Shown here: positions 10,442 to 41,942 of the stretch, piece after piece | Position numbering within the stretch: position 1 is the first letter of the stretch | How the letters are laid out: each line of letters starts with the position of its first letter | NCBI RefSeq assembly: GCF_017539065.1 | Contig: NZ_JAFYHP010000009.1 | Span: forward strand, 79,949 to 143,948 | DNA from: Methanobrevibacter sp. | GTDB lineage: Archaea > Methanobacteriota > Methanobacteria > Methanobacteriales > Methanobacteriaceae | Length of the DNA: 64,000 bases | Direction: 5' to 3' | Notes under the pieces: model-generated | The model's database searches: none | Told to the model about the DNA's origin: nothing | The model's input: only the letters and a program-made list of their open reading frames with translations | Translations under genes and position numbers: made by a program

Positions 10442-12171
10442 GATAATGCCTCCATATAATCTATTTGTATTTTTGCTATTTCTTGATATATATCACAACT
10501 TTCTAAAAGCTTATTGTGTGTTCCTCTATCGACAATCTCACCGTTGTCAATGACAAGGATTTCATCCGCATCCATGATTGTTGAAATTCTTTGTGATACG
10601 ATTAAGATTGAGGAATCCTTCAAATCTTTTAGATTATCTTTTATTTTCCTTTCGGTATTCATGTCAAGTGCTGAAAAACAATCATCAAACAGATAGAACT
10701 CATGGCGGTTTATAATTGCTCTTGCTATTGATAAGCGTTGCTTTTGACCTCCTGAAAAATTAGATCCCCCCTGCGTTACCTCTTCAGCGAGGTTTTCCAC
10801 AAAATCAACTTGTGCAAGTTTCAACGCTTTTCTAATTTCATCATCACTTGCATCATTTTTTCCAATTTGCATGTTTGATTTAACGTCTCCCTGGAATAGA
10901 ATGGCTTTTTGAGGAGTAAAACTAATTTTATCTCTTAAACTTTTCAAATTATAATCTTTAATGTTTATTCCATCAATCAGTATTTCACCGGAACTTGGGT
11001 CCTGAAGACGGGGTATCAAATTAAGAATGGTTGATTTGCCGCTGCCGGTTCCGCCAATGATTGCAGTGGTCTTTCCAGGTTTTAAGCTGAAATTAATGTC
11101 TTTCAATGTTTCCTTTTCACTTCCGGGATATCTGTATGAAACATTTTTAAATTCGATTGTAGGATTTTGTGAAATCTCTGTAAGTTCGCCGTCGGTTATT
11201 GTAAGTTTGGTGTTCAGCACTTCACTGATACGCCTTCCGGAAACAAGAATTCTTGGAAGCATGATGAAAAAGCCCCCAATCATTAGAAATGAAGTGACAA
11301 GCATTGTTGCATATTGGATAAATGCTATTATGTCTCCGGTCAGAACTCCATTGTTTATGGCATCATACGCACCAAAGTAAAGAATCAAGACAACCATCAG
11401 ATTCATCATTAATGTTATCAATGGAAGCATGACCAGCATGGTCTTAAATACATGGATATTGACATCGTAAAAGTCCTTGTTCACCTTTTGGAATTTTTTC
11501 TCTTCAAAATCCTGTCTGACAAAAGCCTTGATTACTGGAATTCCAATCAGAATCTCCCTTGCTGTTTTATTTATGCTGTCCATTATTTCCTGTATGATTT
11601 TGAAATAAGGAATGACCTTGACCATAACGATTACCAAAAGAATAATGATGACAATGAAATTCACTAAGATAATCCATGACAGGTTTGTCTGAAGTTCAAA
11701 TACCTTGATGATACTTCCGATTCCCAAAAGCGGAGCAAATATGAGGGTTGTGAAAATAAATCCTAGAACCCCTTGAATCTGATTGACGTCGTTTGTTGTT
11801 CTTGTGATTAAGGAAGAGCGTGAAATCTCATTCAATTCATGGTTTGAAAATTTCAAGACTTTTTCATAAATGATTTTCCTTAAATCTTTAGCGTAACCGG
11901 ATGCTACCCTGCTTGCAAAAAAAGACACACCAACTGTTGCAAATGCTGAGATTGCAACCATCAAAAGCATTATTAATCCGGTATCTATGATAAACTGGAA
12001 ATCTGTGTTTTGTATGCCTATATTTACAATATCTGCGGTGTATTGTGGTAAGGTCAAATCACAGTAAACCTGGATTAATAGAAAAATGAAAATCAATCCT
12101 ATTTGAGGTATTTTGTTTATCATTGGGTTTAATAATTTCTTCATAATTGCCTTTAATATTATATATTTCAT
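10438..12171 (-). CDS. ABC exporter, fused permease/ATPase subunit, upstream partner
   Basis: Multi-TM N-terminal domain. Walker A GGTGSGKST, signature SGGQKQRLSIARA, Walker B FYLFDDCFS. Confidence 0.9.
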   Translation of the reverse strand: MKYIILKAIMKKLLNPMINKIPQIGLIFIFLLIQVYCDLTLPQYTADIVNIGIQNTDFQFIIDTGLIMLLMVAISAFATVGVSFFASRVASGYAKDLRKIIYEKVLKFSNHELNEISRSSLITRTTNDVNQIQGVLGFIFTTLIFAPLLGIGSIIKVFELQTNLSWIILVNFIVIIILLVIVMVKVIPYFKIIQEIMDSINKTAREILIGIPVIKAFVRQDFEEKKFQKVNKDFYDVNIHVFKTMLVMLPLITLMMNLMVVLILYFGAYDAINNGVLTGDIIAFIQYATMLVTSFLMIGGFFIMLPRILVSGRRISEVLNTKLTITDGELTEISQNPTIEFKNVSYRYPGSEKETLKDINFSLKPGKTTAIIGGTGSGKSTILNLIPRLQDPSSGEILIDGINIKDYNLKSLRDKISFTPQKAILFQGDVKSNMQIGKNDASDDEIRKALKLAQVDFVENLAEEVTQGGSNFSGGQKQRLSIARAIINRHEFYLFDDCFSALDMNTERKIKDNLKDLKDSSILIVSQRISTIMDADEILVIDNGEIVDRGTHNKLLESCDIYQEIAKIQIDYMEALS

Positions 12172-17739: not shown

Positions 17740-18600
17740 ATGAAAAAAATTACTATTGCTATATTAGCTTTGATCCTTATGGGATTATTGATTCCAACTG
17801 GATTTGCAACTGATTCCAATCTTGTAATAACATATGGTGAAACCACATATGCACACAACGATTACAAATCTGTTGTTGATGCATTCTTTGTAAATAATGC
17901 AAATGTTGATTTAAACAATGTGAATTCAAAAGTAATCACTGCTGATCAAGTAAATCAAGTATCAAGTGGGGTTACTGGTAAATCATACTCATCAAATCAA
18001 ATATTCTCTTCAGCATTACTTGATTTGAATGATAATGATAATCTTGAAGTTAGTGTTGATAGATCAAAAATCACCACAATAACTGGACAAATGTACATTT
18101 CTGCATTGAAATCAGCCGGTATTACTAGCGGACATGTCTATGTAACAAGTCCTGTAACAGCTACCGGGGAATCTGCTCTTGCAGGAATAATGAACGCTTA
18201 TGAAGAGGCAACTGATGTTGAAATTCCTGAAAGTGTAAAAGAAGCAGCTAATGATGAAATCTACACTCAAGCGGAAATCGTAGAAAATTCCGGTGTAGAT
18301 GCAAATGAATTATCTGACTTAGTAAATCAAGTAAAAGAGGAAGTATCAAAAGACAATGTGACAGACCACGATACAATCGTGAACATTATCAATAACTACG
18401 TGCAAAACAACAATATTAACATAACAAATGTGGATATTGAAAACTTGGCCACTACAATTGAAGAAGTACAAAACGTCCAAGGAGACGTTAACTACTATAA
18501 AGACCAAGTAAGTGGTTTTTTAAATGATGATGGTTCTGCTGGTGGATTTTCACTTGACGGATTATTAAACTGGATTAAATCCTTTGTTAATGGGATTTAA
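17740..18600 (+). CDS. DUF1002-like secreted protein
   Basis: Signal peptide MKKITIAILALILMGLLIPTGFA. The core ITTITGQMYISALKSAGITSGHVYVTSPVTATGESALAGIMNAYEEAT resembles the DUF1002 family, which is common in Firmicutes. Confidence 0.65.
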   Translation: MKKITIAILALILMGLLIPTGFATDSNLVITYGETTYAHNDYKSVVDAFFVNNANVDLNNVNSKVITADQVNQVSSGVTGKSYSSNQIFSSALLDLNDNDNLEVSVDRSKITTITGQMYISALKSAGITSGHVYVTSPVTATGESALAGIMNAYEEATDVEIPESVKEAANDEIYTQAEIVENSGVDANELSDLVNQVKEEVSKDNVTDHDTIVNIINNYVQNNNINITNVDIENLATTIEEVQNVQGDVNYYKDQVSGFLNDDGSAGGFSLDGLLNWIKSFVNGI

Positions 18601-18646
18601 TTCCATTTCTTTTTTTAATTTTTTTTAGCTATTTGAAAAATAAGAT

Positions 18647-18946
18647 TCAACCCGATACCATCACAAGTTCGCCGGTAACTGGATCTTGATATACTTTTCC
18701 AACTTCGCTATATCCGCTGTCTTCAAGCCCACCTGCATCACTATAGTTCTGTGTAAATGTTTCTGCAGTTGAAACATCCTGTGTTGATTGTGATTGGGTA
18801 ATCATATCAGGATTAACTGATAATGCCATAATAGCAAAAATTAAAAACCCTAGTGCCAATACGAGCATTGCATCTGAAAGGTTATTCAAACCTCCCATTG
18901 GGTCATCATCAATCGATTCTGATATTCTTCGTCTTTTTCTAAGCAT
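18647..18946 (-). CDS. Small single-TM protein, DUF2149 / ExbD-like (tentative)
   Basis: 99 aa. Basic N-terminus, then NNLSDAMLVLALGFLIFAIMAL as the TM segment. Sits immediately downstream of the ExbB-like gene. Confidence 0.6.
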   Translation of the reverse strand: MLRKRRRISESIDDDPMGGLNNLSDAMLVLALGFLIFAIMALSVNPDMITQSQSTQDVSTAETFTQNYSDAGGLEDSGYSEVGKVYQDPVTGELVMVSG

Positions 18947-18950
18947 GTCC

Positions 18951-19592
18951 TCACCATCTATTTAAAGTTTCAAGTTCTGCTTCAGCAACGGTTTCAACAT
19001 CAATCAGCTCTGATTCGTACCATTGTTTTTTGTATTTTGAAACAACAAATGCAACAGCACCTACAGATAAACCTGTAACGGTTGTATCGAAAGCTATTGT
19101 CAATGATTGCGCAAGTGTTGCGATATCTCCAGTTCCTAATGCGGCTAAACCAGGTCCCAATGGAATTAAAGTACCAAGTAAACCTAAAATAGGACCTACA
19201 CGTACAAGAATGTCTGTTTTATTAGTTTTTTTAATTAACCTTGTCTCTTCTGCAGATATTAACTCACTTGCCAATGCTTTCCTAGCTTCCGGACCGATAT
19301 CATAATTATCAGCAATTCTTGTCAATATCGCTTTTTGATAATCAAATAAATTACTGTTTGAAATTTCGTTTTTCATTTGATTTACATTACTTGAAAATGA
19401 AACTCTCCTCACTAAATCTTCTAACTCTTTTGATGTTATTGCTTTTCTTGAAATAAATTCATTGATTAAGCCACCAAATGCCAAAATAACAATAACTATT
19501 GAAATTACAATTAATATAACAACTGGGGTTAATAAACTTTCAGAAATTATATGAATTAATGAGGTTAATGTTTCAGTTCCCTGAATTATCAT
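18951..19592 (-). CDS. MotA/TolQ/ExbB proton-channel family protein
   Basis: 213 aa. The C-terminal region GPILGLLGTLIPLGPGLAALG ... SLTIAFDTTVTGLSVGAVAF matches the MotA_ExbB channel signature. A 4-nt overlap with the upstream gene. Confidence 0.75.
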   Translation of the reverse strand: MIIQGTETLTSLIHIISESLLTPVVILIVISIVIVILAFGGLINEFISRKAITSKELEDLVRRVSFSSNVNQMKNEISNSNLFDYQKAILTRIADNYDIGPEARKALASELISAEETRLIKKTNKTDILVRVGPILGLLGTLIPLGPGLAALGTGDIATLAQSLTIAFDTTVTGLSVGAVAFVVSKYKKQWYESELIDVETVAEAELETLNRW

Positions 19593-20239
19593 GAATTTCC
19601 TCCTTTAGTGTCATTTATAAGTACGCCCACAATTAAAACAGCAATAATTCCTATAACAACATAGATTAATTGATATGTTGGTGTCAAAATTAAAAATGAA
19701 CTAAACATAGTATAATCTAAGGTTATAGTTGAATAATATGTTAATGTGAAAATAAACATCAAAACTGCAAATAAAGACATGTATTCTCCAACAATAACCG
19801 GATATTCTCGTTTTGCATGACGTAGTAATCTTGTGAGTTGATAAACAACAAATAAAATAACAAAAACGAATAAAGAATATAATAGCATGGTTAAAATACT
19901 TAGATTTGCTTGAGAAGCAAATAAAACTATTGAAATTAAGAATGTGAGTATTATTGCATAAAACGGTAATTTGAAATCATATGTTTTTATGTAATATATC
20001 AATGAAACAAGTATTATTGCTGTAATTATAAGGAATATGTAGCTAAAATTAGATAATAAAAATTCTAATTGGGTATTTAAATAACTTGAAGCATATATTA
20101 ATAAAAATGATATAACGGAAAATATTGCAGAAATTATAATTAATTTAACATTATTTAGTTTATAATTTCCAAAAAATAATGCGATATTAGCACAGAACAA
20201 TACTAATAGAATTAATAAATATCCTCCAATCAAATCCAT
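19589..20239 (-). CDS. Polytopic membrane protein (DUF2162-like, tentative), first gene of the ExbB-like trio
   Basis: 216 aa, about 6-7 hydrophobic segments. Translationally coupled (ATGA) to the ExbB-like gene. Confidence 0.6.
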   Translation of the reverse strand: MDLIGGYLLILLVLFCANIALFFGNYKLNNVKLIIISAIFSVISFLLIYASSYLNTQLEFLLSNFSYIFLIITAIILVSLIYYIKTYDFKLPFYAIILTFLISIVLFASQANLSILTMLLYSLFVFVILFVVYQLTRLLRHAKREYPVIVGEYMSLFAVLMFIFTLTYYSTITLDYTMFSSFLILTPTYQLIYVVIGIIAVLIVGVLINDTKGGNS

Positions 20240-20323
20240 TTTCTAAACCCTATATTCTTTATCAGATTAATATATATCTACATGAATATATAAACATATC
20301 GAGATGAACTAATTTAAAGGATA

Positions 20324-20347
20324 TTTAATGGGAGTAAATCCATTAAA
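20324..20347 (-). promoter_or_regulatory. 8-bp inverted repeat upstream of the ExbB-like trio
   Basis: TTTAATGG (20324-20331), 8-nt spacer, CCATTAAA (20340-20347). About 85-105 nt upstream of the start at 20239. Confidence 0.3.
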
Positions 20348-20458
20348 ATAAGCATATTGTAGTTTAAAAATAAATAATAATAAAATGGAGTAAAAATGTT
20401 GATTGAATTAAAAAAAATAAAGGAATAAAAGAATAAAAAAACTTTCAAAATTGCTTAT

Positions 20459-21028
20459 TTATTCTTCGATTATTTCGTAGTAGGAGCCTTCTGCACATGA
20501 TTTGCAAACAGGTTTTCCTCCGATCAATTTGTGGCGACCATCTGATACCTTTTCACCACATACTGAACAAAATGCAGTTGTATATGGTTTTCCAGGCATG
20601 TCCCCTCTACCTAAGTCAATTCTAACTTTATCAACTTTAAATAATTCTTCAGGAGGAGTTCTTCTAAAACGAGCAATCATTTCTTCTTTGGTTTCTTCAT
20701 CCTTGAATTTTTTGTTCGCATCGGCATCGGTGATTCTTAAAGCTTCACCTGTGTCCTGGTTATAGAATGTTGCTGCAAATTTACCGTAATACATTTGTTT
20801 CAATGTTCTTTTACCCATAGAACAGCCAGTAACGGATTGAACTGCATCAGACATGCATCTATCAATTTCCAAAAATACAATTAAATTTTTATGTCTTTCA
20901 TTCAATGGCATTCCAAGCAATTCAAGACCATACATTGCAAGTTTTGTTCCAATAGCTATTCCTCCACAAACGTGGCCATGGAAATTAGCCGCTTTTGTTA
21001 ATTGTTCATCATAGTCTTTTTCATTCAT
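20459..21028 (-). CDS. FmdE-domain protein with C-terminal zinc ribbon
   Basis: ATG 21028 follows AAGGTGA. FHGHVCGG motif of the FmdE family. C-terminal CSVCGEKV ... CKSCAEG. Confidence 0.75.
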   Translation of the reverse strand: MNEKDYDEQLTKAANFHGHVCGGIAIGTKLAMYGLELLGMPLNERHKNLIVFLEIDRCMSDAVQSVTGCSMGKRTLKQMYYGKFAATFYNQDTGEALRITDADANKKFKDEETKEEMIARFRRTPPEELFKVDKVRIDLGRGDMPGKPYTTAFCSVCGEKVSDGRHKLIGGKPVCKSCAEGSYYEIIEE

Positions 21029-21039
21029 TCTTTTCACCT

Positions 21040-21843
21040 TTATAAATCTAATGTTAAGTTTGTTTTCATAGGTACACAAACTTTTCTCTCATCATCTAAT
21101 TTAATTAATTTTACATCAATCGAATAAGCTTTTCTTAAATTACTTTCAGTTACAACATCATCAGGAGTTCCAAAATCTATGAACTGTTTATTTTTCATAA
21201 TTGCCACTTTTGTTGAGCTTAAAAATGCATGATCAGGGAAATGTGATGACATTATAATTGACAAACCTGATTTGGCAAGATTATCAATGATTTCCAATAG
21301 TTTTATTTGATTCCCGAAGTCCAAATGGGATGTCGGTTCATCCAAAATTAGAATATCTGGCTTTTGACAAAGTACTCTTGCAAGGAATACTAATTGACGT
21401 TCCCCACCACTTAAATTTGTATATTCCTTGTCCTTTAAATCTTCAATGCCTAAAGTTTTCAAGGCATCTAAGGCGATTTCAACATCTTCTCCTCTTGGAG
21501 AATCTGTCAAGTTAAGGTAGGGTGCCCTTCCCATCAGGACAACATCAAAGACTTTAAATGGAAATGATGGAACATGTGCTTGAGGAATATAACCTATATG
21601 TTTTGAAATCTGTTTAAAAGACAACTTCTTAATGGATTTCCCATTAATTAAAATTTCACCGGAGTTAATTTCATGCAGACCATTAAGACATTTGATTAAT
21701 GTTGTTTTCCCGGTTCCGTTTGGTCCCAGAATACATAATACATCTCCTTTTTCAATGGAAAAGCTAATGTTTGAAAATATTTCCTCACCGTCATAGTCAA
21801 ATGAAATGTTTTTCACTTCAAATAGTTTATCCTCTACGACCAT
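21040..21843 (-). CDS. ABC importer ATPase (FepC/BtuD-like)
   Basis: Walker A GPNGTGKTT, signature LSGGERQLV, Walker B ILILDEPTSHLD. Confidence 0.9.
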   Translation of the reverse strand: MVVEDKLFEVKNISFDYDGEEIFSNISFSIEKGDVLCILGPNGTGKTTLIKCLNGLHEINSGEILINGKSIKKLSFKQISKHIGYIPQAHVPSFPFKVFDVVLMGRAPYLNLTDSPRGEDVEIALDALKTLGIEDLKDKEYTNLSGGERQLVFLARVLCQKPDILILDEPTSHLDFGNQIKLLEIIDNLAKSGLSIIMSSHFPDHAFLSSTKVAIMKNKQFIDFGTPDDVVTESNLRKAYSIDVKLIKLDDERKVCVPMKTNLTLDL

Positions 21844-22847
21844 TCTGAATAACCCCTCTTAAGTAAGTATAAGAAAATCGGAACGCCGATAATTGCTGTT
21901 AGAATTCCTATTGGGATTTCAATGGCAATCACAGCACGAGATATATTGTCTATTAGCAATAAAAAACTGGCTCCCAAGCTCAATGATGCTGGAAGCAATA
22001 TTCTATTGTCTGGTCCTACAAGCATACGGGCCATATGAGGAATTATTAAACCAATCCAACCGACAATTCCACTTATTGAAACTGCTGCTGAGGTTAATAA
22101 GGTACAGCCGGCAATAATCAGCAGTCTAATTCTTGAAGGATTCAATCCAAGGGATTGGGCCTCTTCATCACCCATAGCAAGCAAATTCATTTGCCATCTT
22201 AAAAGCAATAATATTACAAGTCCTATAATTACAGGTATTGCAATCATGAATAATTTATCTGCATTAATTGAAGCCAATGATCCCATTAACCAGTATACGA
22301 TTTCAGGCAGTTTGTCATCTGGATCTGCAATGAATTTGATGGCTGAAATCAATGAATTGAAAAATGCAGATATTGCCACTCCAGACAATACCAAAACAAG
22401 TATTCCGCCAGCCTTATATGTTCTGGATATTAGATATGTGGCGGATACAGACAGTAAACCGAAAAGAAATGCAAAAATTTGAGTTATTATGTTAGCTCCA
22501 CTAAGCAGAATGGCCAATGCCGCTCCAAAACCGGCACCATTTGACACGCCAAGCAAATCAGAAGATACCAAAGGGTTTTTAAATATTGATTGAAATGCAG
22601 CTCCGGAGATTGCAAGACATGCACCAACCACAATCGCACCAATGATTCTTGGAAGCCTTATTTCAAATACGATTGTTGTAATGGTGGAATTTACTTCTAA
22701 TTGTGGAAATATTGGGCACAATAAAGTATTCATTACATCAATTGGGCTTATTGGATACCTTCCAATTAAAAATGATGCGAAAAATAAAATTATTGGAAAA
22801 AAGATTAAAAGTATGATACTTATAATCTCTTTTGATTCATTATCCAT
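21834..22847 (-). CDS. ABC importer permease (FecCD/BtuC family)
   Basis: About 9-10 TM segments. Family-like stretches RLPRIIGAIVVGA and GWIGLIIPHMAR. ATG 22847 (alternative GTG 22856). Confidence 0.85.
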   Translation of the reverse strand: MDNESKEIISIILLIFFPIILFFASFLIGRYPISPIDVMNTLLCPIFPQLEVNSTITTIVFEIRLPRIIGAIVVGACLAISGAAFQSIFKNPLVSSDLLGVSNGAGFGAALAILLSGANIITQIFAFLFGLLSVSATYLISRTYKAGGILVLVLSGVAISAFFNSLISAIKFIADPDDKLPEIVYWLMGSLASINADKLFMIAIPVIIGLVILLLLRWQMNLLAMGDEEAQSLGLNPSRIRLLIIAGCTLLTSAAVSISGIVGWIGLIIPHMARMLVGPDNRILLPASLSLGASFLLLIDNISRAVIAIEIPIGILTAIIGVPIFLYLLKRGYSEWS

Positions 22848-22855
22848 GAATATCA

Positions 22856-23962
22856 CTATAGATTTGATTCTTTAAGTCCTGAATCCAATAGAATTTGTTT
22901 TGCCTGATCATCACTTAAATCAAAGTGATAGAAATTACTGTAAAACTCTTTGGTTGCATCTACCATATTGATGTCTTTGTAATCATCTGGATAGAGTACT
23001 TTAGCTGTCCATGGAACTCCTATAATCATATTTGCCCCAACTGGCCTATCAAACCATTTGAATGGAGATTGTGGAGATAAATAGACTTCTTTATTTTTAA
23101 CAGCATCCATTTTTGCCCAGTTAGGATTACTATAAACACTTGCGTAGAATTCTGGATCGTTTGTAATGATTTTATCAGGATTCCAACTAATAACTTGCTC
23201 TATTGAGACTTGAACACCACCAGTGGTGTTTCCTTGTGCTAATGAATCTGCAACATTCACTCCACCAACTAAATCAATTAATTGCCCATGTGTGGAGTGT
23301 GAAGGATTTGTTTGAAGTCCGTCATCGCCTTGAGCATAATAAACTGTTGTTTTATCACTATCAGATAATTTAGAAGACCTGTCATGCACAATGTCTAAAT
23401 ATTTATCGTTAAAATCGTTTAATTCTTTAGCTTTATCTTCAGCTCCAACGACTTCGCCCATAAATGTAATGGATTCCCCTATTTTTTCAACATTTGTTGT
23501 GTCTTTAACTGCAATCACAGGTATTGTACCGAATTTTTCTTGTCTCTCAGCAACAGTTGATGCATCACCATCACCGCCTTCATCAATAGATTCAATGACT
23601 ATATCTGGCTCTGAAGCTATAAATTCTTCATAACTTCCATCCTGTGTACCATACCATCCTCCAACAACAGGATAATTCTGATACTGGCCGGGAACATATT
23701 CTAATTCATCATCAGTCCACTGGAAGTTAACGGCTTTTAATTTATCCGGTGCTATCATATATAATACTGTAGTCATAGGAGGGCTTGTTGCCACTACGTT
23801 GCCAACAGAAGCAGGGATTTCAATGTCTCTGCCAATCATATCGGTTACATTTTTAGCGCCAACTGTTTCAACGGTAGATGGTGTTAGAAACATATGAGTG
23901 GCCAGTCCCGCTAAGACCAGAACAAATAATAATAAGATTATTACTTTTATTTTCTTTTCCAT
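22856..23962 (-). CDS. ABC importer substrate-binding protein (BtuF/FepB-like, class III)
   Basis: N-terminal membrane anchor MEKKIKVIILLLFVLVLAGLA. First gene of the binding protein-permease-ATPase operon. Family assignment rests on context and size. Confidence 0.65.
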   Translation of the reverse strand: MEKKIKVIILLLFVLVLAGLATHMFLTPSTVETVGAKNVTDMIGRDIEIPASVGNVVATSPPMTTVLYMIAPDKLKAVNFQWTDDELEYVPGQYQNYPVVGGWYGTQDGSYEEFIASEPDIVIESIDEGGDGDASTVAERQEKFGTIPVIAVKDTTNVEKIGESITFMGEVVGAEDKAKELNDFNDKYLDIVHDRSSKLSDSDKTTVYYAQGDDGLQTNPSHSTHGQLIDLVGGVNVADSLAQGNTTGGVQVSIEQVISWNPDKIITNDPEFYASVYSNPNWAKMDAVKNKEVYLSPQSPFKWFDRPVGANMIIGVPWTAKVLYPDDYKDINMVDATKEFYSNFYHFDLSDDQAKQILLDSGLKESNL

Positions 23963-24216
23963 TATTAAACCTCAAATTCAACATTTCGATAAGAATATAT
24001 TTTCATTAAGTTATTAAATAATTTTTCTAATATGTGATTATTCAAATAAATAATAATTTAATAAAATGTTAGAACAATTATTGATAATAAAAATGAATTT
24101 AGATAGATAAAAATTGGAATTTTAATCGAATATAATAAATAAATAAGAATTTGCGTTCTATAATATTTTACAATAATTTTTGAAAAAAAATAAAAGAATA
24201 AATATGTAAAACATAT

Positions 24217-27200
24217 TTATTGTGTTAAAGTTTCATTAGTTTGCAGTGTCTTATTCAATAAAACCTCAAAAGTCCTATATTCGTCTTTTAAGGAACCGAT
24301 TGAAATTTTAAGCATATTTGCATCACTACTGAAATCAGTAGCATTGAATGAGAAAACGCCCACACCATTTACAACATTGAATTTTAGCTCAATGTCATTC
24401 AATGTGGCATACATTTCAAACACTGGCAATTTGGAAGCCACTTCATCATATTTATAGAAAGTAATTGAATAAGTTCCAGGGGTTATGACTTCTATTTCCT
24501 TAACAGACAGATAAACGGCATTTACTCTAGGGCACATGGTTCCATAACCGGTAGTGTTTGTTTCATAATCCCAGGTTATTCTTGCATTCTTACCAAACCA
24601 GTTTGCACCCAATTGCAATCTTTTGGAATCATTGTACAGGCCATATTGATAAATTCCTTCAGGATTTGCACTTAACTCACCCAAAATCATCATACTAGGG
24701 CCTTTTGCATTTCTATAAATTGCATTATCATTGACATTTGGTTCAACCGCATTTTCTGCCAAATCATAACCTGCATTAAATCTAATGCCTTCAAGTGCAT
24801 TATCAGATATCCAATTGCTTAAGATGACAATGCCTGTTGAGAAATTTGAATCAACAGAAATTCCCATATAATTATCTAAGATTTTATTTTGAGTTATTGA
24901 AACGTTAACTGCTGATTTATTCAAGAAGATTCCATAACCTAATGGTCCTTCAGGAATGTCCATCACATATAATCCGATGTTTTTGGTAATCAAATTATTG
25001 GTTATATTGGTGTTTTTTACACCTGAATCATAATTGATTCCATAATTGCTTAAGGATAACGTATTGTTGTTTATTTCCAAATCATCAGTATTTTGAACAA
25101 ATATTGCATTTCCAAATGATTCAACAACGTTTTTAATAACTTTGATATTTTCTGCATTGGATATTTCAATACCGTTTCCAGGAATGATTAAGTTACCTGA
25201 ATTGTATTCACTGATTTTGGATTGATCAAGAACATTTAAAATGGTGTTATTCTCAAGTGTTACGTTGTTTGCATTTTTAATAATAATTCCTGAACCCTCA
25301 TGGGCATTAATTGCTAAATTAGAAATGTTCAAATTAGATGCGGCAATTGTTAAAACCGGACTTTTGGATTTGCCATTTAATGTAGTGTTTGGCATAAAAG
25401 TAATGTTCAATGCTTTATCTATGGTCAAGCTGACATCATTATAATTATTTCCTAAAAATTCAACAGAGTTTTTAGCTTCATTAAATCTGGCTTGGATTTC
25501 ATCTCCAGGAATGCCGGCATCAATAAATGTAACCCCCGTTTTATTTAAAATTGTTATGACATTATTGGCCGCGGATGCTTTGTATTGATTTGTTTGAGCA
25601 TACTTGCTTATAATATCATAAGATCCAACGCTTAATGAGGAAACATCAACTTTAATTTGACCGTTCTTATCAGATTTTTGTGAATAGGACTGGTTATTTA
25701 AAGTATATGAAATTAACTGGTCAGCTAATGCTTTTCCGGAAGAATCTTCTAAAGTAATAGTGTATGATTCAGCAGAATTTTTAGAAAATGTCCTATCATA
25801 GCTAGTTAGTGTGGTTGGGGTTCTTGCAACTTTAATGGTTCCTGTTGCTTTAGCGTTTTTATAGATAGCTGATCCGGCATAGGTTACAGTTGCCTTATAT
25901 GTATTTTCAGTTGCAAATTTAGTTTGAATGCTAATTTGACCTTTGCTGTTAGTTGTTTTAGTGTAGGTAATACAGTTCAAATTAATTTTTAGAGTCTGTC
26001 CTGAGATAGCTTTACCGTCATTTGTTTTTAAAGTTACTGTATAATCCTTTGCAGTATTTGGAATAGTGTTCATATTTGGAGCAGTTATTTTAGTAACTGT
26101 TTTTTGAACAGTTATTTTTCCTGTTGCAGAAGATTTCTTATATGATTTGGTTTTCTTATAGTTTGCTTTGACTTTATATGATTTGAGCTTGGAAAATTTA
26201 ACTTTGATTGTAACCTGACCTTTACTGTTGGTCTTTTTAGTATATTTTTTACCATTTACTTTGACTGTAACTTTCTGTTTTTTAAGAACTTTACTGTTTT
26301 CATCTTTTAAGGTAATGCTATATTTTGTTTTGGTTTTAGGAGTAGTTGTAATCTTAGGAGCAACCAATTTGGTTTTTAATACTTTTTTAACATAAATCTT
26401 AGTAGTTTTCTTAGCTGCAGTATATTTATTGGTACCTTTATAATTCATTACAACTTTATAGGTTCCTTTTTTAAGTTTAAGTTTTAATTTAGCAATGCCT
26501 TTTGCATTTGTTGTTTTAGTATAAGTTTTTTTATTAACTTTAATAGTTACTTTTTGACCAGACAATGGTTTATTGGATGAATCTTTTAAAGTTAATTGAT
26601 AATAATCGGCTTTTTTAATAAACATTGCATAATTTGAAGCCACAATATTAGTTGATACTTTTTGAACTGTTATTTTTGCCTGTGCATTTGATGCAGAATA
26701 GTCAACATCGTCTCCAGCATAGTTTACTTTAACAGTATATGTGCCCACGTTCTGTCTGATTTTAATTGTAGCTTGGCCTTTAGCATCGGTAACCGCTTTG
26801 ACAGTTTTTGTACCAATGGTGAATGTGACTGGTTCATTCACGACAGGATTGTTATAAATGTCAGTCACTGTTGCAATGAAATTAACATTGGAATTTGGAT
26901 AAGTGTTTAAATTTGAAACTGCAATTTTGGCTGGGGTTATATTGCCGGGAATGTAATTATCATCAACGTTGAATTTTTTAACATTCTTGTTTTGATCACC
27001 GGTAATATATTCTGAAGTACCTGGTAAAACCACTGTTACAACGTTTCCACTTTCCTTAAAGTCTTCTGGATAGAATCTGGCTGTTGCTGTTCCATCAACC
27101 ATCATTACAGTCTTATAGACATCACCTTCCTGAGGGGCAACATAATTATTGTCTTTATTTAAATAAAATATCACTGGAACGGAACTCAATCCTTTTGCAA

Positions 27201-28503
27201 CTTCTCCATTCGGGTTGATGAGTGAAATTGTATAGATTCCCTTTTTTGATTGTTTTATTTCAGTTAATTGGAGTCTGTAATCTCCACTATACCAACGTGC
27301 ACCATATTCAAAATATAATATAGGACAATTGACATTTTCATTTATTACGAAAGTATAACCTAAGAATACACCGCCTTTGCCATCACGATTAATAGGTCTT
27401 ACGTTATTTCCAACCATATAATTGTTATTTAATACTTCTAATTTTTCACCGCCCTGCTTCCATATTCCTTGAGCGTTTTCACTATTGAAAACTTCTCCTC
27501 CATCAGTAAATGAGTTTTTATAAAAGAAATTGCCGATAATGTTGATTTGTTGGATTTGACAGTCCACATACACTCCATACATTGAATTTAATGCAATATA
27601 ATTGCTTAAAATATTGATGTTATTGGATGAAGTCAATTCAATTCCCTTTTCATTATTGGTAATGTTGTTGAAATTGACTGTTGGATTGTTTGAACTGCCT
27701 GCAAACAATACTCCCACTTCATTATTTAAAATATTATTGGAATTAATGATTGTTTTAGTAGAATCAACATCATTAATACCGTATTTGGAATCTTCAATAA
27801 TTGAATCCTTTACTGTTACTCCATTTGAATTCTTAATTTTAATCCCATTTACAGTTTCGGAAATGCTTACATTCTGTATTACTGTATTTCTTGCATTTTC
27901 CAGTCTTATGGCATCAGCAATATTATTGTTGGAAAAGGTACAGTTTCTTATAATGATATTCGAAGCGCCATCTATTAAGATATGGTAATCATCAGTACGT
28001 AACGGTGTGCTGCTGTCGAATACGAAATTAAATCCTTCAATAATTGTTCCACTGGCTCCTGAAGTGAGGTAAAATTCTCCTCTATGATTAGAAAATGCAG
28101 TGCTTGAGCAGGCACTTAAATTTGTTCCGACTTCACTTTTTATTGTTACCTTCTTATCAATTTGCAAATGGCAATGTTCATATGATTCCCCTCTAATAAT
28201 GATGGTATCTCCGTCGTTTGCAGATTGAATTGCAGTTCTTATAGTGTGATCATTCATCTCCACATGAGTCTCACCATAATTATCAACTACAATAGTTTTA
28301 GGCTCAGATAAAATAGCATCATTAGATGCGCCTAATTGATTATCATTTAAATTATATTCTTCATTAGCATTTAATTCACCGATTGGCGAATCTACAGTTA
28401 AATTATTATCATCAAAATTGTCTTCACTTGCTGCAACTGAACTGATGCATAAAAACGTAACCAATAATAAAGACAACATTATATAAATGTTTTTGTTTTT
28501 CAT
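24217..28503 (-). CDS. Adhesin-like protein (ALP2), 1428 aa: two parallel beta-helix regions flanking five Ig-like modules
   Basis: Signal peptide MKNKNIYIMLSLLLVTFLCISSVAA. NosD/PbH1-like repeats (N..I.NN..GI) at both ends. Five ~92-aa modules at nt ~25550-26930 with the core V.VNGK.YTKKTNSKGQ. Confidence 0.9.
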   Translation of the reverse strand: MKNKNIYIMLSLLLVTFLCISSVAASEDNFDDNNLTVDSPIGELNANEEYNLNDNQLGASNDAILSEPKTIVVDNYGETHVEMNDHTIRTAIQSANDGDTIIIRGESYEHCHLQIDKKVTIKSEVGTNLSACSSTAFSNHRGEFYLTSGASGTIIEGFNFVFDSSTPLRTDDYHILIDGASNIIIRNCTFSNNNIADAIRLENARNTVIQNVSISETVNGIKIKNSNGVTVKDSIIEDSKYGINDVDSTKTIINSNNILNNEVGVLFAGSSNNPTVNFNNITNNEKGIELTSSNNINILSNYIALNSMYGVYVDCQIQQINIIGNFFYKNSFTDGGEVFNSENAQGIWKQGGEKLEVLNNNYMVGNNVRPINRDGKGGVFLGYTFVINENVNCPILYFEYGARWYSGDYRLQLTEIKQSKKGIYTISLINPNGEVAKGLSSVPVIFYLNKDNNYVAPQEGDVYKTVMMVDGTATARFYPEDFKESGNVVTVVLPGTSEYITGDQNKNVKKFNVDDNYIPGNITPAKIAVSNLNTYPNSNVNFIATVTDIYNNPVVNEPVTFTIGTKTVKAVTDAKGQATIKIRQNVGTYTVKVNYAGDDVDYSASNAQAKITVQKVSTNIVASNYAMFIKKADYYQLTLKDSSNKPLSGQKVTIKVNKKTYTKTTNAKGIAKLKLKLKKGTYKVVMNYKGTNKYTAAKKTTKIYVKKVLKTKLVAPKITTTPKTKTKYSITLKDENSKVLKKQKVTVKVNGKKYTKKTNSKGQVTIKVKFSKLKSYKVKANYKKTKSYKKSSATGKITVQKTVTKITAPNMNTIPNTAKDYTVTLKTNDGKAISGQTLKINLNCITYTKTTNSKGQISIQTKFATENTYKATVTYAGSAIYKNAKATGTIKVARTPTTLTSYDRTFSKNSAESYTITLEDSSGKALADQLISYTLNNQSYSQKSDKNGQIKVDVSSLSVGSYDIISKYAQTNQYKASAANNVITILNKTGVTFIDAGIPGDEIQARFNEAKNSVEFLGNNYNDVSLTIDKALNITFMPNTTLNGKSKSPVLTIAASNLNISNLAINAHEGSGIIIKNANNVTLENNTILNVLDQSKISEYNSGNLIIPGNGIEISNAENIKVIKNVVESFGNAIFVQNTDDLEINNNTLSLSNYGINYDSGVKNTNITNNLITKNIGLYVMDIPEGPLGYGIFLNKSAVNVSITQNKILDNYMGISVDSNFSTGIVILSNWISDNALEGIRFNAGYDLAENAVEPNVNDNAIYRNAKGPSMMILGELSANPEGIYQYGLYNDSKRLQLGANWFGKNARITWDYETNTTGYGTMCPRVNAVYLSVKEIEVITPGTYSITFYKYDEVASKLPVFEMYATLNDIELKFNVVNGVGVFSFNATDFSSDANMLKISIGSLKDEYRTFEVLLNKTLQTNETLTQ

Positions 28504-35870: not shown

Positions 35871-37478
35871 GTGAAAATCATAAATATGAAAAAGATTATT
35901 CCAATTATATTTATATTTCTCATGACGATAGGCATTGCCGCGGTCAATGCTTCAGAAGATATAGATACTGCCTTGGAAGTGAACATTATAGACTCTTCGA
36001 CGATTGAAGGGAGCAATGTAATCACTGTCCAAAATGACTCATCTTCTAATCTGGAATATGAAATTTCGAATGCTGAAGATGGGGATGAAATTTTAATAGA
36101 TCAGGGAACATATGCAATCCACAATATTACAATTACAAAAAGCATTACCCTACAGGGCAATGGCAATCCTAAGGATGTAATCATTGATGGGGAAAATAAC
36201 TCTAGCATATTTCTTATTAGAAGTCCTGATGTTCATGTAACCTTTAGAAATTTAACATTCATCAATGGTTTAACCGATAATTTTGGTGGAGCAATTTCAA
36301 TGGAAACAGGTACTGTGTATGTAGATAACTGCATTTTTATAAATAACACTGCATTAAATAACACTAATGCGGGAGCCATCTCCAATTATGGAACTAAGGA
36401 AAGCAAAGGATATTTATCTGTAAAGGATTCACTTTTCTTAAACAATCATGCTGACCATGATGGAGGTGCAATCACCACATGTTATGCAAATTCTGACATA
36501 ATTAATTGTGTCTTCATTAATAATTCGGCACACCGTGATGGGGGAGCGATACGCGTAAGTGTTCAGGGATACGGCAATGTCCAGGATTGTATTTTCATGT
36601 ATAACCATGCTGATGAATGGGGCGGAGCCTATTACAGTTGGTCTGGTGAATCCAACATTGAAAGATGCATATTCATGAATAATAGTGCAGGAACTAACGG
36701 CGGAGCAATAATGGTTTCAGGCAATATCAATCTACAAGATTCTATTATTGTCAATAATTATGGTGGATTGAATGGAGGTTCTTTTTACATACAACAGCCT
36801 ATGTATGATAAAAAAACAACCATGAAAATCAATAATAACATAATCACCAACAATTCATCTCCAAACGGCCAAGAAATTTTCATCAAATGGAGAGATTCAC
36901 ATAATCTATACACAGATTTCAACAACAATGATTGGGGAGATGAAGATCCTAATGATCCACGTGTAAATGACCCAAAGAAGGTTACTTCAAGAAGCAAAGT
37001 TTCAAAAACAATTAACTCTAATTTATTTGGACGGTTAAATGTGGATGAATTAGACAAATACAGTGATTTGGTTGGTAGTTTCTTTGAAAACGATACGCTT
37101 GATGACCTTAAAGAACAATTTAAATATGAAGAAACAGATGAAAGTCCGGTCAATAATCAAACAAGCTATCCAAATAAAAAAGACGCAAGCCAGGAAAAAA
37201 CCGCTAAGCAAACGTTAGATGATGATGAAATTATAAATGAATCTAATAATAATTTAACTACAGCTTCAAATTCACAAGTTTCCAATATTGTATTCAACAC
37301 TCCGAATGCTTTAGGAAATTCTACTTCATATGGGGAAGATAATGACGCATATGAATTAAATGAAAGTGAGCATTCTGTTGCAAAGCAAAGTAGTTTTGAT
37401 ATTAAGGTATTCATTGTCCTAATTGTTTTAGTATTCCTATTGTTGATGATTGGATACAAAAGATTTAATAAAGAGTAA
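35871..37478 (+). CDS. Adhesin-like protein (ALP6): GGAI-repeat beta-helix, low-complexity stalk, C-terminal TM anchor
   Basis: GTG 35871 (or ATG 35886). Signal peptide KKIIPIIFIFLMTIGIAAVNA. Repeats: FGGAISM, DGGAITT, DGGAIRV, NGGAIMV. C-terminal VFIVLIVLVFLLLMIGY followed by KRFNKE. Confidence 0.85.
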   Translation: MKIINMKKIIPIIFIFLMTIGIAAVNASEDIDTALEVNIIDSSTIEGSNVITVQNDSSSNLEYEISNAEDGDEILIDQGTYAIHNITITKSITLQGNGNPKDVIIDGENNSSIFLIRSPDVHVTFRNLTFINGLTDNFGGAISMETGTVYVDNCIFINNTALNNTNAGAISNYGTKESKGYLSVKDSLFLNNHADHDGGAITTCYANSDIINCVFINNSAHRDGGAIRVSVQGYGNVQDCIFMYNHADEWGGAYYSWSGESNIERCIFMNNSAGTNGGAIMVSGNINLQDSIIVNNYGGLNGGSFYIQQPMYDKKTTMKINNNIITNNSSPNGQEIFIKWRDSHNLYTDFNNNDWGDEDPNDPRVNDPKKVTSRSKVSKTINSNLFGRLNVDELDKYSDLVGSFFENDTLDDLKEQFKYEETDESPVNNQTSYPNKKDASQEKTAKQTLDDDEIINESNNNLTTASNSQVSNIVFNTPNALGNSTSYGEDNDAYELNESEHSVAKQSSFDIKVFIVLIVLVFLLLMIGYKRFNKE

Positions 37479-37681: not shown

Positions 37682-39811
37682 TTATCTTTTAGAGTTCATT
37701 TCTTTAATGTCGTCACGATAATAAAAACCGACTGTTAATATCATTAATAAAACAATGAATAACATTCCGCTGACTCTAAAGAATTCATCTTCATCAATAA
37801 TAATTTGTTTTACAACAGAATCTGATGTGGAACCAGGATTTCCAGAATCTCCAGTACTTGGTTCGGAAGCACTAGCCTGTGAAGCACTAACATCTGTTTC
37901 ATAGCTTTGTGAAACATCATTCACCTGACTGTTTGCACTGTTTGCAGGATCTGTTTTCTGGCTATATGTGCTGTTTCCGGTATTTGAACTACTTTCTTGG
38001 GTGCCGAGGCCGTTTCCTCTATTGGCAGTTCCTCCAGAACCATCACCGTTGCCGTTGCCATTACCGTTTCCACCGCCTGTGCCAATATCTTCAAATAATT
38101 GATAATTTGGAATGGTAGGATAGGTATATGTTGGTGTTTTACCATTAATTCCTTTAGATGATTTGGTATTGGAATTAAATGTGTTGTCACGTTTTGAACG
38201 GTCTACAGTGGCTCTTATTAAATCTCCATTTTTAGCATCGACTGTGAAAACTCCAGCCCCACCTTTAACGGTAATGCTTCCGGTTTTACCATCAGGGGTG
38301 GAATATGTCAAAATCCTGTCTGGAAGTAGGCTAGCAATATTTCCATTAGAATCTAAGAATTTTGCTTGGAATTTGTTTGGACCAATCTGAGTAACTACAA
38401 ATTGAATTTTATTTGATTTAATCTTAGGACATATCAAATTATAATCGCTATACCAATTATCTCCTATTTCCAATCTTTCTCCAGTATCTTGATAATAGGT
38501 TTCTTTGGCTTCAACTGATAATTCAGAGTTGCGGTAAATAACATTGTAACTAATATCCTGTTTAGCAGGTTTTACATAATCATCAAAGAACTTGATGCCT
38601 ATTTCACTATCAGATATTACATTTGACTGAATTTTATTGTTTCCGATTTCTGCAATTGCAATTCCATTAAACTTATTGTAAGTGATATCGTTAGATTTGA
38701 TGTTAATGTTATTTCCAGCACTGTTGATTAAAATGCCATTAATACCATTTTTGGAAATTGTGTTCTTATTTATTTGAACATTTTCCGGTCCTTCCTTATA
38801 GTTAATGCCATTGACTTCCTTCGCTAAGTAAATACCATTTTGAGTGTTGCTTAAAATATTATTTCCATCAATATAAACATTATTTGATTTAGCAATTTCA
38901 ATACCATTTTGACCGTTATTTTTAATATCGTTGTTAAAAATATATGCATAACTGGATTTTGCTAGTGAAATGCCGCTTTTTGAGTTTTTAACAATGTCAT
39001 TTTTGGTAATGTTCAGATATTTGGTGTTTAAAGAAACAATTCCATTGCCTTTAGTTGTAATCTTATTTCCAATAATGGTCGCATATTCGGCACCATCAAC
39101 TTTGATTCCATCACCATCACCGGTTATTGTAAACCCTTTAATCTTTGTTAGGGAAGCTGATTTGCCTTTTATGGTAATTACAGGATTGTTTGAACTTGAT
39201 TTTAAAGTAGTTCCCACATTACTAATCAAGGTTAATGATTTGGTAATCACTAGATTGATGTTGGAATAACTTGATCCTTTAAATAATATTACATTATTGG
39301 CTTTTGCATTGTCAATAATGCTTTGAATCTCAGAGTTGCTTAATCCTGCTTCAACTATTCGGGTATTGGTCATTTTAATAGTTGTTGTTAAGCTAGAAGC
39401 TTTATAATTTGAGTTTCCAGCATATTTAGTAACTATCTTATATGTTCCGTCATTTAGCCTAAGCTGAAGGGAGGCAACGCCTGCTGAGTCAGTATTGACA
39501 TTATAGGTCTTTCCATTCAGTGCGAATGATACTTTTGTATTTTTTAAAGGACTGTTATTTGAATCGGATAACTTTACTTTGAAATAGTCTCCAATAACAT
39601 CAAATGTAGTATTGCTTGTAACGTTAATGTGTGTCTCCTGCTTTGATGCCTGAAGTGTCTGCGTGTCATTTGATAATTTAAGAACGGGTTCGTTCGGAAC
39701 CTCTAAATCATCACTAACATCTGTTGAATTATCTATTTCTTGAGCAGCACATATGTTTAGCGTGAGCAATGTGAACAGTAATAGCAGTATACCAAATGTT
39801 TTCTTGTCCGT
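37682..39811 (-). CDS. Adhesin-like protein (ALP7): one Ig-like module, NosD-like beta-helix, Gly/Asn/Ser-rich stalk, C-terminal TM anchor
   Basis: The track start TTG 39769 gives MLTLNICAAQ. The upstream open frame encodes TDKKTFGILLLLFT, back to ACG 39811, which lies 6 nt after AGGAGGT. Ig-like module: LNGKTYNVNTDSAGVA. GNGNGNGNGDGSGG stalk. C-terminal MLFIVLLMILTVGFYY. Confidence 0.75.
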   Translation of the reverse strand, partial: TDKKTFGILLLLFTLLTLNICAAQEIDNSTDVSDDLEVPNEPVLKLSNDTQTLQASKQETHINVTSNTTFDVIGDYFKVKLSDSNNSPLKNTKVSFALNGKTYNVNTDSAGVASLQLRLNDGTYKIVTKYAGNSNYKASSLTTTIKMTNTRIVEAGLSNSEIQSIIDNAKANNVILFKGSSYSNINLVITKSLTLISNVGTTLKSSSNNPVITIKGKSASLTKIKGFTITGDGDGIKVDGAEYATIIGNKITTKGNGIVSLNTKYLNITKNDIVKNSKSGISLAKSSYAYIFNNDIKNNGQNGIEIAKSNNVYIDGNNILSNTQNGIYLAKEVNGINYKEGPENVQINKNTISKNGINGILINSAGNNINIKSNDITYNKFNGIAIAEIGNNKIQSNVISDSEIGIKFFDDYVKPAKQDISYNVIYRNSELSVEAKETYYQDTGERLEIGDNWYSDYNLICPKIKSNKIQFVVTQIGPNKFQAKFLDSNGNIASLLPDRILTYSTPDGKTGSITVKGGAGVFTVDAKNGDLIRATVDRSKRDNTFNSNTKSSKGINGKTPTYTYPTIPNYQLFEDIGTGGGNGNGNGNGDGSGGTANRGNGLGTQESSSNTGNSTYSQKTDPANSANSQVNDVSQSYETDVSASQASASEPSTGDSGNPGSTSDSVVKQIIIDEDEFFRVSGMLFIVLLMILTVGFYYRDDIKEMNSKR

Positions 39812-39996
39812 ATTTTCACCTCCTTCACATCAATTGAAAAATATTTTCCTTATGAATTATATTTCATATTAATAAGTATATAAGATTGACTAATTTGACC
39901 ATTTAAACTTGCATAAATTCAAATCACAGAAGTTTTTTTGAAAGAACCTATAAATATGATAAAATCTTAATTAGTTATAAATGGGGGTGATGTTAA

Positions 39997-41649: not shown

Positions 41650-41942
41650 TTTTTCCTTTTTTTAATTTTTAAATTTCGAGTTTTTAAATTAAAGCTCCGA
41701 AACTTTTCATTTAACTAATTTCTTTTTTTTGTTAGGTTCTATCAGTAATTGTTCAGCTTTTTCTAGTCTATTTTGTTATTCCTTAATTGTTTTGATTTTT
41801 GAAGAGTTCATAATGGCGGAGGGGGAATTATTACATGTTCATTATATGAACATTAGGGAAATATGGGGGAATTTATGTTTTACGCAACTTCATCAAAACA
41901 ATTTTTTCATATTTCTCCATTTAAATGATGGGAGGTGAATTT

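Follow-up and report, generated by a model that had tools for sequence, protein, structure and literature searches.

Introduction

Motors of the ExbB/ExbD type are understood only as energisers of the outer membrane, the flagellum or a gliding track. The module that we describe here belongs to an archaeon of the genus Methanobrevibacter, whose members are monoderm and have no outer membrane. It is a trio of genes for a DUF2162-like polytopic membrane protein, a MotA/TolQ/ExbB-family channel protein and a small DUF2149 protein, and it lies on the minus strand at 18647-20239 of a 64,000-nucleotide stretch of a Methanobrevibacter sp. genome (contig NZ_JAFYHP010000009.1, positions 79,949 to 143,948, of assembly GCF_017539065.1). 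This whole stretch is called the window below, and coordinates refer to it unless another contig or locus is named. Near-identical proteins carry Methanobrevibacter names, and no TonB_C domain was found in the genome, whose assembly of 1.84 Mb is 93.7% complete.

The closest described system is the hmuYRSTUV haem operon of Bacteroidota, in which HmuU and HmuV are annotated as MotA/ExbB and DUF2149 proteins and hmuTUV follows the gene for the CobN-like protein HmuS; when iron or haem is limiting, all of these genes are strongly induced (PMC10434189, PMC11681262). HmuS has been shown to be a haem dechelatase, HmuU and HmuV are assumed to energise the TonB-dependent receptor, the function of HmuT has been called unclear, and HmuS/CobN homologues in methanogens have been noted and left unexplained (PMC12583661). 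According to a 2025 review, the roles of HmuS, HmuT, HmuU and HmuV all remain unclear (PMC12094164). DUF2149 has also been catalogued as arCOG03208, with the remark that it is "linked to TolQ" (PMC9425974). The initial annotation of our locus, made from the sequence alone, was therefore right to call the mechanism of the trio uncharacterised, but the type of module is already catalogued and is named by domain only: HmuU and HmuV carry the MotA/ExbB and DUF2149 annotations, and DUF2149 its arCOG number (PMC10434189, PMC11681262, PMC9425974).

In the following, we argue for a reading to which we assign a probability of roughly 50%, namely that the trio is a TonB-independent, ion-driven stator module of the HmuT/U/V type that serves a metal-uptake pathway by way of an anchored surface protein.

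Composition of the trio

The initial annotation listed seven open reading frames (ORFs) between 18647 and 23962, and all of them are present on the minus strand as first described. Its spacings are likewise exact: the last gene of an importer block is separated from the trio by 219 nt (20240-20458), the DUF2162-like and MotA-like genes overlap by 4 nt (19589-19592, ATGA), and 4 nt (18947-18950) lie between the MotA-like and DUF2149 genes. The DUF2162-like gene is translationally coupled to the MotA-like gene.

Structure prediction shows the middle protein of the trio (18951-19592, 213 aa) to be a channel subunit with a predicted ExbB fold. The initial annotation had staked its reading on the MotA_ExbB profile, and the protein scores above the cut-off of that hidden Markov model (HMM), with 42.6 bits versus 22.9 for PF01618 (44.2 bits in a whole-genome scan). 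It has three transmembrane (TM) helices and a cytoplasmic helical domain, and its AlphaFold2 (AF2) model has a predicted local distance difference test (pLDDT) score of 91. With this model, Foldseek retrieves ExbB (5zfp, 5sv0, 6tyi) at TM-scores of 0.62-0.69 over 205-214 columns with a probability of 1.00, followed by TolQ, PomA and MotA. Across 50 sequences, residues P134, G137, L138, G140 and T141 of TM2 are invariant together with F168, and D169, T170 and T171, which include the threonines of TM3, are at least 90% conserved; in a profile comparison, the TM2 motif aligns with the PTxGxxGT motif of MotA. A search of the Protein Data Bank (PDB) with the single sequence gave no match, and a profile search gave marginal matches to MotA only.

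Directly after this gene, across the 4-nt gap, lies the gene for the DUF2149 protein (18647-18946, 99 aa), which scores 39.5 bits versus a cut-off of 27.1 with PF09919 (COG4744). By analogy, we suspect that this protein takes the role of an ExbD/TolR-like "B subunit". As in ExbD and TolR, there is a single N-terminal TM helix with a conserved aspartate, D25; a basic tail precedes the helix, and a variable linker and the C-terminal motif GYxExGxVYxDPxTGxLxMV follow it. D25 is invariant across 26 diverse DUF2149 proteins, as are N22, G83, V85 and D88. Some 55 residues follow the helix, of which only the last ~25 are conserved, so that the protein has no counterpart of the folded periplasmic alpha/beta domain (~90 residues) of the ExbD/TolR type; nor does it match the PF02472 (ExbD/TolR) HMM. 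DUF2149 is a small family: at 50% identity, a set of 1.84 billion proteins contains 517 representatives of it.

The first protein of the trio (19589-20239, 216 aa) is probably a divergent DUF2162, a homology supported by a chain of BLAST matches and by the Atlas. The numbers that the initial annotation gave for DUF2149 and DUF2162 agree with Pfam, the DUF2162 match itself (PF09930) falling below the cut-off with 23.7 bits versus 34.4. Members of the clade described below link the protein by BLAST to canonical DUF2162 copies that score 215-229 bits, and DUF2162 is its nearest cluster in the Atlas (score 0.91, 205 shared features). Seven helices are predicted, and the AF2 model has a pLDDT of 87. 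Pfam labels DUF2162 a predicted transporter. Helices 1-6 of the model resemble one six-helix half of the major facilitator superfamily (MFS) in VIA-align with a Z of 9-10.6, which is below the caution level for helical bundles, and Foldseek found no match to the model in the PDB. NCBIfam has no name for any protein of the trio or for the FmdE-domain protein encoded upstream of it.

Module copies and their neighbours

Modules with a MotA-like gene are present in 73 of 80 sampled Methanobacteriaceae genomes, and DUF2149 is found in 254 of the 301 genomes of a phylum sample, usually in 1-6 copies. Five modules of a MotA-like and a DUF2149 gene occur in the genome studied here. The one on contig C9 directly follows genes for a DUF3344 protein and a 1726-aa CobN-like protein, both CobN-like genes of the genome being located on this contig; those on C14 and C26 come directly after genes for PKD/propeller/beta-helix proteins of 2034 aa and 2187 aa, respectively; and the one on C29 has a TFS-like gene and a gene for a 1042-aa beta-helix protein just downstream on the same strand. 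The 1726-, 2034- and 2187-aa proteins each have an N-terminal signal, a C-terminal TM helix and a short cytoplasmic tail. Among the 1587 ORFs of the genome, 17 are of the type with a signal and a C-terminal TM helix at a length of at least 500 aa. The exported CobN-like gene that stands beside modules of the Hmu type is absent next to the window copy and present next to its C9 paralogue.

The two giant proteins (C14:83633-89737, locus L011; C26:22464-29027, locus L012) are paralogues with PKD, PQQ-like propeller, CHB_HEX_C and beta-helix domains, and their C-terminal anchors are nearly identical (…AAVILFAVI.ILGYGYRR.KKDGDEF). Neither of the MotA-like/DUF2149 pairs that follow them has a DUF2162 gene, the upstream gap of 165-261 nt being too short for one. 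A more canonical pair is found outside the window on the minus strand of contig C23 (L013:5896-7158), where a 279-aa ExbB (PF01618, 99.8 bits) and a 137-aa ExbD-like protein (PF02472, 32.9 bits, over the N-terminal part only) are encoded directly downstream of MreB and RNase HII.

For the wider family, 65 modules were fetched with their flanks. A gene for an anchored or CobN-like protein directly precedes the module on the same strand in 24 of them, to which L030 and L033 are probably to be added when miscalled starts are allowed for. In 15 of the 65, BLAST recognises no DUF2162. Some modules (L042, L045, L052, L064) have upstream of them a member of an exported protein family of ~930-980 aa; those at L052 and L064 combine an N-terminal signal with a C-terminal TM helix, and the L052 protein, the sole one scanned, has no Pfam match. 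Metagenomic relatives of the module adjoin CobN, CobA/BtuR and Big_2/SLH surface proteins, these bacterial contexts being drawn from four metagenome look-ups and the literature, with several contigs too short to use.

Linkage to an importer across genomes

The initial annotation proposed that the trio is linked to metal or corrinoid transport genes, here an importer with a substrate-binding protein (SBP), a FecCD-type permease and an ATPase, followed by an FmdE gene. We found this linkage conserved elsewhere, in strict co-occurrence, in closeness across many genera and in several arrangements, and we regard it as supported. In a maximum-likelihood tree of 65 MotA-like proteins, the window protein falls in a clade of 24 rows from many genera with 100/98 support. 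The importer is present in all 24 genomes with this clade, compared with 57 of the 81 genomes overall, and none of the 24 genomes that are without a FecCD match carries the clade. The basal sub-clade (6 rows, 5 genera) has the SBP and FmdE genes immediately downstream of the trio in 6 of 6 cases, with FecCD as well in 5 of 6. On the other branches a distance of 5-20 kb separates the importer from the trio; genes for surface proteins lie in the interval, and the orientation of the importer varies.

When modules of any clade are considered, at least 29 of 52 importer-bearing genomes have one within 25 kb of the importer, and the distance is 2-3 kb in 12 of them (hand-compared coordinates). The chance expectation for proximity of up to 25 kb is roughly 7%, for three modules in a 2.2-Mb genome; as related genomes are not independent, these figures, like those on co-occurrence, express a strong tendency and not a formal probability. 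Two further arrangements are the divergent placement of the importers in a separate module clade (L076, L080) and, at L066, a CobN-type trio that is directly followed by an FmdE gene.

Several features of individual loci deserve mention. Between the trio and the importer of L032 lies a gene for a 278-aa class I S-adenosylmethionine (SAM)-dependent methyltransferase (10585-11421), and to judge from the spacing, the corresponding place in L030, L033, L055 and L058, which also belong to the basal sub-clade, may hold this gene too. Two FecCD importers are present in each of the genomes G011 and G023, and every one of them has a MotA-DUF2149 module nearby. In G018, a decayed MotA-like reading frame with 11 stops is located 2.3 kb from the importer.

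The trio as a transcription unit

The intergenic region begins, after the FmdE stop codon, with a T-rich stretch that is not conserved. It is followed by a promoter-like block ~70 nt in length that precedes the DUF2162-like start and is conserved with relatives; the block contains ATCTCGATATGTTTATATA at 20287-20305 with the TATA-like element TTTATATA ~47 nt before the ATG. The block is kept in two other species (G004, G080) despite a different upstream gene, and its motif is unique in the window but for one match with three mismatches. A search for a regulatory motif common to the trio and the importer gave none, and the trio motif was not seen in the upstream region of the importer. Because the trio has a conserved promoter-like region of its own, with a motif that is absent upstream of the importer, we take it to be its own transcription unit and not an operon fusion with the importer.

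Within the promoter-like block (20262-20310, ATCTCGATATGTTTATATATTCAT...), the ATCTCGAT part beside the TATA-like element could be a site for a regulator. An Rfam scan of 18000-24600 returned no riboswitch and no other RNA family; scans for sigma-70 promoters and terminators are uninformative for an archaeon.

A candidate anchored beta-helix partner

A gene for an anchored NosD-like protein of 615-707 aa stands immediately before DUF2162, on the same strand, at 14 of the 24 loci of the clade. The protein has a signal peptide and NosD/beta-helix repeats, then a linker rich in Ser and a conserved C-terminal anchor in which a TM helix is followed by YYRxDIKxM. The upstream proteins of L030 and L033, which were called at 541 and 589 aa, appear to be this protein again, their starts having been miscalled. 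In the window, this position is occupied by the importer and FmdE. The best full-length tblastn match to the upstream proteins of six relatives (L016, L017, L019, L022, L027, L032) is the minus-strand gene at 37682-39829, for an exported anchored protein with NosD/beta-helix and Ig domains (Beta_helix 73.5 bits, NosD 56.8, Big_3_5 32) and an S-rich linker, whose C-terminus is conserved in the alignment. We therefore take it to be the putative orthologue of the upstream partner of the trio in relatives. A complex prediction with the three proteins of the trio and the C-terminal 76 residues of this partner scored 0.00 with an uncertain fold of the partner, and we counted it neither way.

The gene is part of a dense island of exported adhesin-like proteins at 24217-46022, with Beta_helix, NosD, Chlam_PMP repeats, Big_1 and DUF11. 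The island proteins encoded at 35871-37478, 39997-40962 and 41925-46022 have C-terminal TM anchors.

The importer and its surroundings

The block upstream of the trio comprises genes, all on the minus strand, for a class III SBP (22856-23962, 368 aa; PF01497, Peripla_BP_2, 82.6 bits), a FecCD-type permease of the BtuC/FhuB-like, type II kind (21834-22856; PF01032, 298 bits), an ABC importer ATPase (21040-21843; ABC_tran, 120 bits) and an FmdE-domain protein with a C-terminal C4 zinc ribbon (20459-21079; PF02663, 106.5 bits; PF01258, dksA/traR, 37.3 bits). The first three overlap or abut, so that the full set of a type II importer is present, and the permease and the FmdE protein are each the sole copy in the genome. 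The FmdE protein contains the FHGHVCGG motif that had been reported for it. Because its relatives align only from residue 15-17, its true start is probably the ATG at 21028, and with neither a signal peptide nor a TM segment, it is presumably cytoplasmic. Its relatives in the PDB are 2gvi and 3d00, and members of the FmdE family are reported mostly to adjoin genes for metal-ion transporters (PMC2954224).

The best PDB relatives of the SBP are 4pag (6e-49), HI_1472 (3psa, 2.6e-18) and iron-complex binding proteins, and its N-terminus forms a hydrophobic helix that looks uncleaved and anchoring. All parts of the importer score far below the cut-offs of the NCBIfam substrate equivalogs (BtuFCD, FepBCD, haem, F420-0), as exemplified by BtuC (237 versus 461) and BtuF (27.5 versus 234). 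The nearest equivalogs of the ATPase, those for haem, Fe-dicitrate and corrinoid, are all below their cut-offs, as are the BtuC, FecC and F420-0 models for the permease. A corrinoid-specific (BtuFCD) or siderophore-specific importer was rejected, as it is unsupported by the NCBIfam scores and the PDB relatives.

Immediately upstream of the importer lies the gene for a 1428-aa adhesin-like exported protein (24217-28503, minus strand) with beta-helix/NosD and Big_1 domains. It has a signal peptide and no C-terminal TM helix, and it is one of the surface proteins whose island parts the trio from its ancestral partner.

Discussion

The reading that we favour can be spelled out as follows. The complexes solved for relatives of the two stator proteins are ExbB5-ExbD2 and MotA5-MotB2, and by homology with them a pentamer of the MotA-like protein and a dimer of the DUF2149 protein would move relative to each other, driven by the flow of ions past the conserved aspartate. 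Such a motor could perform mechanical work beyond the cytoplasm, in a space that lacks ATP. We infer from gene linkage only what it acts on: it may act on the anchored surface protein through the membrane helix of the latter, much as ExbBD acts on TonB. Within the pseudomurein wall, the anchored protein would in turn capture a metal or a metal chelate, release it or process it. The SBP and the ABC importer would next take over this substrate, and the cytoplasmic FmdE/zinc-ribbon protein would receive it from them. According to this model, the clade of the window trio was ancestrally clustered with both the NosD-like anchored protein and the SBP-FecCD-ATPase-FmdE importer; in the present genome, the importer would have moved next to the trio, and genes for surface proteins now separate the trio from its anchored partner.

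A number of points weigh against this reading, and they bear on each of its parts. With regard to the motor, searching the PDB with the DUF2149 family profile recovered neither ExbD, TolR nor MotB and no meaningful match of any kind, and hhalign gave a weak alignment of DUF2149 with the ExbD-like protein of the same genome (E 0.012, probability 3.6%), in which Asp is nevertheless aligned to Asp. Both the 5:2 assembly and its coupling to a partner are predictions only. With regard to the anchored protein, the upstream proteins at four loci of the clade (L014, L015, L024, L026) have no C-terminal anchor, and the candidate partner in the window sits 17.4 kb upstream of the trio on the same strand, with adhesin-like genes and the importer in between. 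The start of its gene has a strong Shine-Dalgarno sequence, GGAGGTGA, followed by AAAT and then by ACG where relatives have ATG or GTG. The frame is open, the first canonical start is a TTG at 39769 that would remove most of the signal peptide, and the ACG may be a near-cognate start, a sign of decay or a base-call error. Because the anchored partner is 17 kb away and without a canonical start, the window trio may work with another partner or be partly orphaned.

The importer part of the reading has difficulties of its own. A large exported, C-terminally anchored protein is a more constant neighbour of the modules than the importer is, and the importer of the two closest relatives is on another contig. 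The adjacency of trio and importer in the window is most likely a secondary rearrangement, to judge from the promoter-like region and the gene orders of relatives, so that it does not speak for a local operon. Part of the linkage could be synteny inherited within an adhesin island, given that surface genes are abundant and the genomes are related. Finally, the NCBIfam scores and PDB relatives do not allow a substrate to be assigned to the importer. The proposal of the initial annotation, that the trio energises a step in metal acquisition, thus fares well with respect to the protein families and the linkage, and less well with respect to the neighbourhood on which it was built, which appears to have been rearranged and in which the importer is a less constant companion than the anchored protein.

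Other explanations account for parts of the same data. The trio might act as a general motor for surface proteins with no part in nutrient uptake, powering conformational work, display, turnover or adhesion of C-terminally anchored, adhesin-like proteins, and its linkage to the importer would then be inherited synteny. Such a role would suit the adhesin island of the window (Beta_helix, Chlam_PMP, Big_1 and DUF11 at 24-46 kb), the two of the five modules of this genome that follow PKD/propeller/beta-helix giants without a metal signature, and the bacterial relatives that flank Big_2/SLH wall proteins. We nevertheless judge it unlikely, if worth keeping in mind, since links to metal genes recur in independent arrangements and in distinct clades (CobN-like genes, FecCD importers, FmdE, CobA/BtuR and the haem hmu operon; PMC10434189), and since it does not readily explain an importer in 24 of 24 clade genomes and a clade in 0 of 24 genomes without a FecCD match.

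That same co-occurrence is what one would expect if the trio acted directly on its neighbouring importer, either by gating the FecCD permease or by pulling on the N-terminally anchored SBP, with no third partner. The two are adjacent in the window and 2-3 kb apart in 12 other genomes, and the topology of the SBP, with an N-terminal helix and an outside domain, is TonB-like. However, most modules of the family have no importer nearby and follow anchored giants instead, those near an importer may be placed upstream of it, downstream of it or divergently from it, and the trio has its own promoter-like region, whose motif is lacking upstream of the importer. Type II ABC importers such as BtuCD-F and FhuCDB are, moreover, driven by ATP, and we know of no such system that uses an extra energiser. 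Direct action on the importer therefore strikes us as quite improbable. We give even less credit to the idea that the trio is itself a transporter, in which a metal ion or small chelate would pass through DUF2162, a possible half-MFS-like bundle, and the MotA-like and DUF2149 proteins would couple DUF2162 to the ion gradient. The Pfam label, the resemblance of the model to MFS half-domains (Z 9-10.6) and the translational coupling of the DUF2162-like gene to the MotA-like gene are all compatible with this, and a review of P. gingivalis proposes a role in inner-membrane haem/iron transport for HmuTUV (PMC12094164). Yet the MFS match is below the reliable level for helical bundles and Foldseek finds none, 15 of 65 modules have no recognisable DUF2162, and none would fit upstream of the C14 and C26 pairs. 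To our knowledge, no 5:2 stator drives a solute carrier.

Returning to the stator module that serves metal uptake through an anchored protein, one doubtful extension is that a "Ton system without an outer membrane" exists in Methanobacteriaceae and probably in monoderms of other groups. Stators of the HmuUV type would hold the C-terminal membrane helix of large receptors or enzymes that span the wall, and inside the pseudomurein the ion gradient would drive the capture or release of metal chelates, or their metallation and demetallation, to feed a conventional ABC importer. If so, the five modules of this genome would each serve a different surface protein, and HmuTUV of gut Bacteroidota would be the energisers of HmuS and not of the outer-membrane receptor. 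Whatever the fate of this extension, an organism with neither an outer membrane nor a TonB domain has five divergent stator copies near exported proteins, and the question of what HmuTUV does becomes testable where an explanation by the outer membrane is impossible. The answer bears on how work is done on enzymes and receptors outside the cell, without ATP. It is also relevant to how the methanogens of rumen and gut obtain their metals; these organisms require Ni, Co, Fe and Mo/W, and they are targets for methane mitigation.

Comparison with known systems

The importer block resembles known type II importers (BtuCD-F, FhuCDB, HmuUV-T of Yersinia, MolBC-A/HI1470-72) in its combination of SBP, FecCD permease and ATPase. 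Unlike these, its operon ends with an FmdE/zinc-ribbon gene, it is linked family-wide to a stator-like module, and it remains below the cut-offs of all substrate equivalogs. A looser parallel exists with NosD-NosF-NosY, in which a periplasmic beta-helix protein is moved by a membrane energiser to provide copper to N2O reductase. Both there and here, an extracytoplasmic beta-helix protein is encoded together with a membrane unit for energy transduction, but we regard this as analogy only, for the energiser of the trio would be a stator-like pair and not an ABC complex, and the Pfam NosD match reflects generic beta-helix repeats.

With ExbB-ExbD-TonB and TolQ-TolR-TolA, the trio shares a middle protein that has the predicted ExbB fold over its full length, the PxxGxxGT motif of TM2 and the threonines of TM3, as well as a partner with one TM helix and an aspartate of the essential type that is encoded directly downstream. 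In the TonB-ExbBD structure 9ddo, which was in the list from our fold search, the TM helix of a third protein reportedly docks on ExbB, and docking of this type is the model that we propose for the anchored partners. In contrast to ExbD and TolR, the putative B subunit is not a member of their family by HMM, and it has a ~25-residue motif in place of the periplasmic domain of ~90 residues. The proposed transducers would be anchored by C-terminal helices and not, as in the Ton and Tol systems, by N-terminal ones; there is no outer membrane to act on; and a separate, more canonical ExbB/ExbD-like pair is encoded elsewhere in the genome. The TonB and outer-membrane receptor of a Ton system have no counterpart here, no TonB_C being found in the 93.7%-complete genome.

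The nearest parallel is HmuTUV (PG1554-1556 in P. gingivalis, BT0491-0493 in B. thetaiotaomicron), which likewise consists of a membrane protein, a MotA/TolQ/ExbB protein and a DUF2149 protein and is likewise linked to the acquisition of metals or tetrapyrroles. PF09930 gives no match in the B. thetaiotaomicron control genome, and HmuT is thus at most a putative equivalent of DUF2162. The placement of HmuTUV after HmuS is mirrored by the C9 paralogue of our genome, which follows an exported CobN-like protein; the links of the window copy, by contrast, are with a class III ABC importer, with FmdE and with a NosD-like anchored protein, and not with a CobN-like enzyme. The archaeon also differs in having no outer membrane, TonB-dependent receptor, hemophore or TonB_C domain, and therefore the assumption that HmuU and HmuV energise the receptor HmuR cannot hold for this Methanobrevibacter. 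The present analysis adds three things to the systems described so far: the module has expanded in Methanobacteriaceae, one of its clades is specifically linked, in strict co-occurrence, to a type II ABC importer with FmdE, and a NosD-like anchored protein is its candidate partner.

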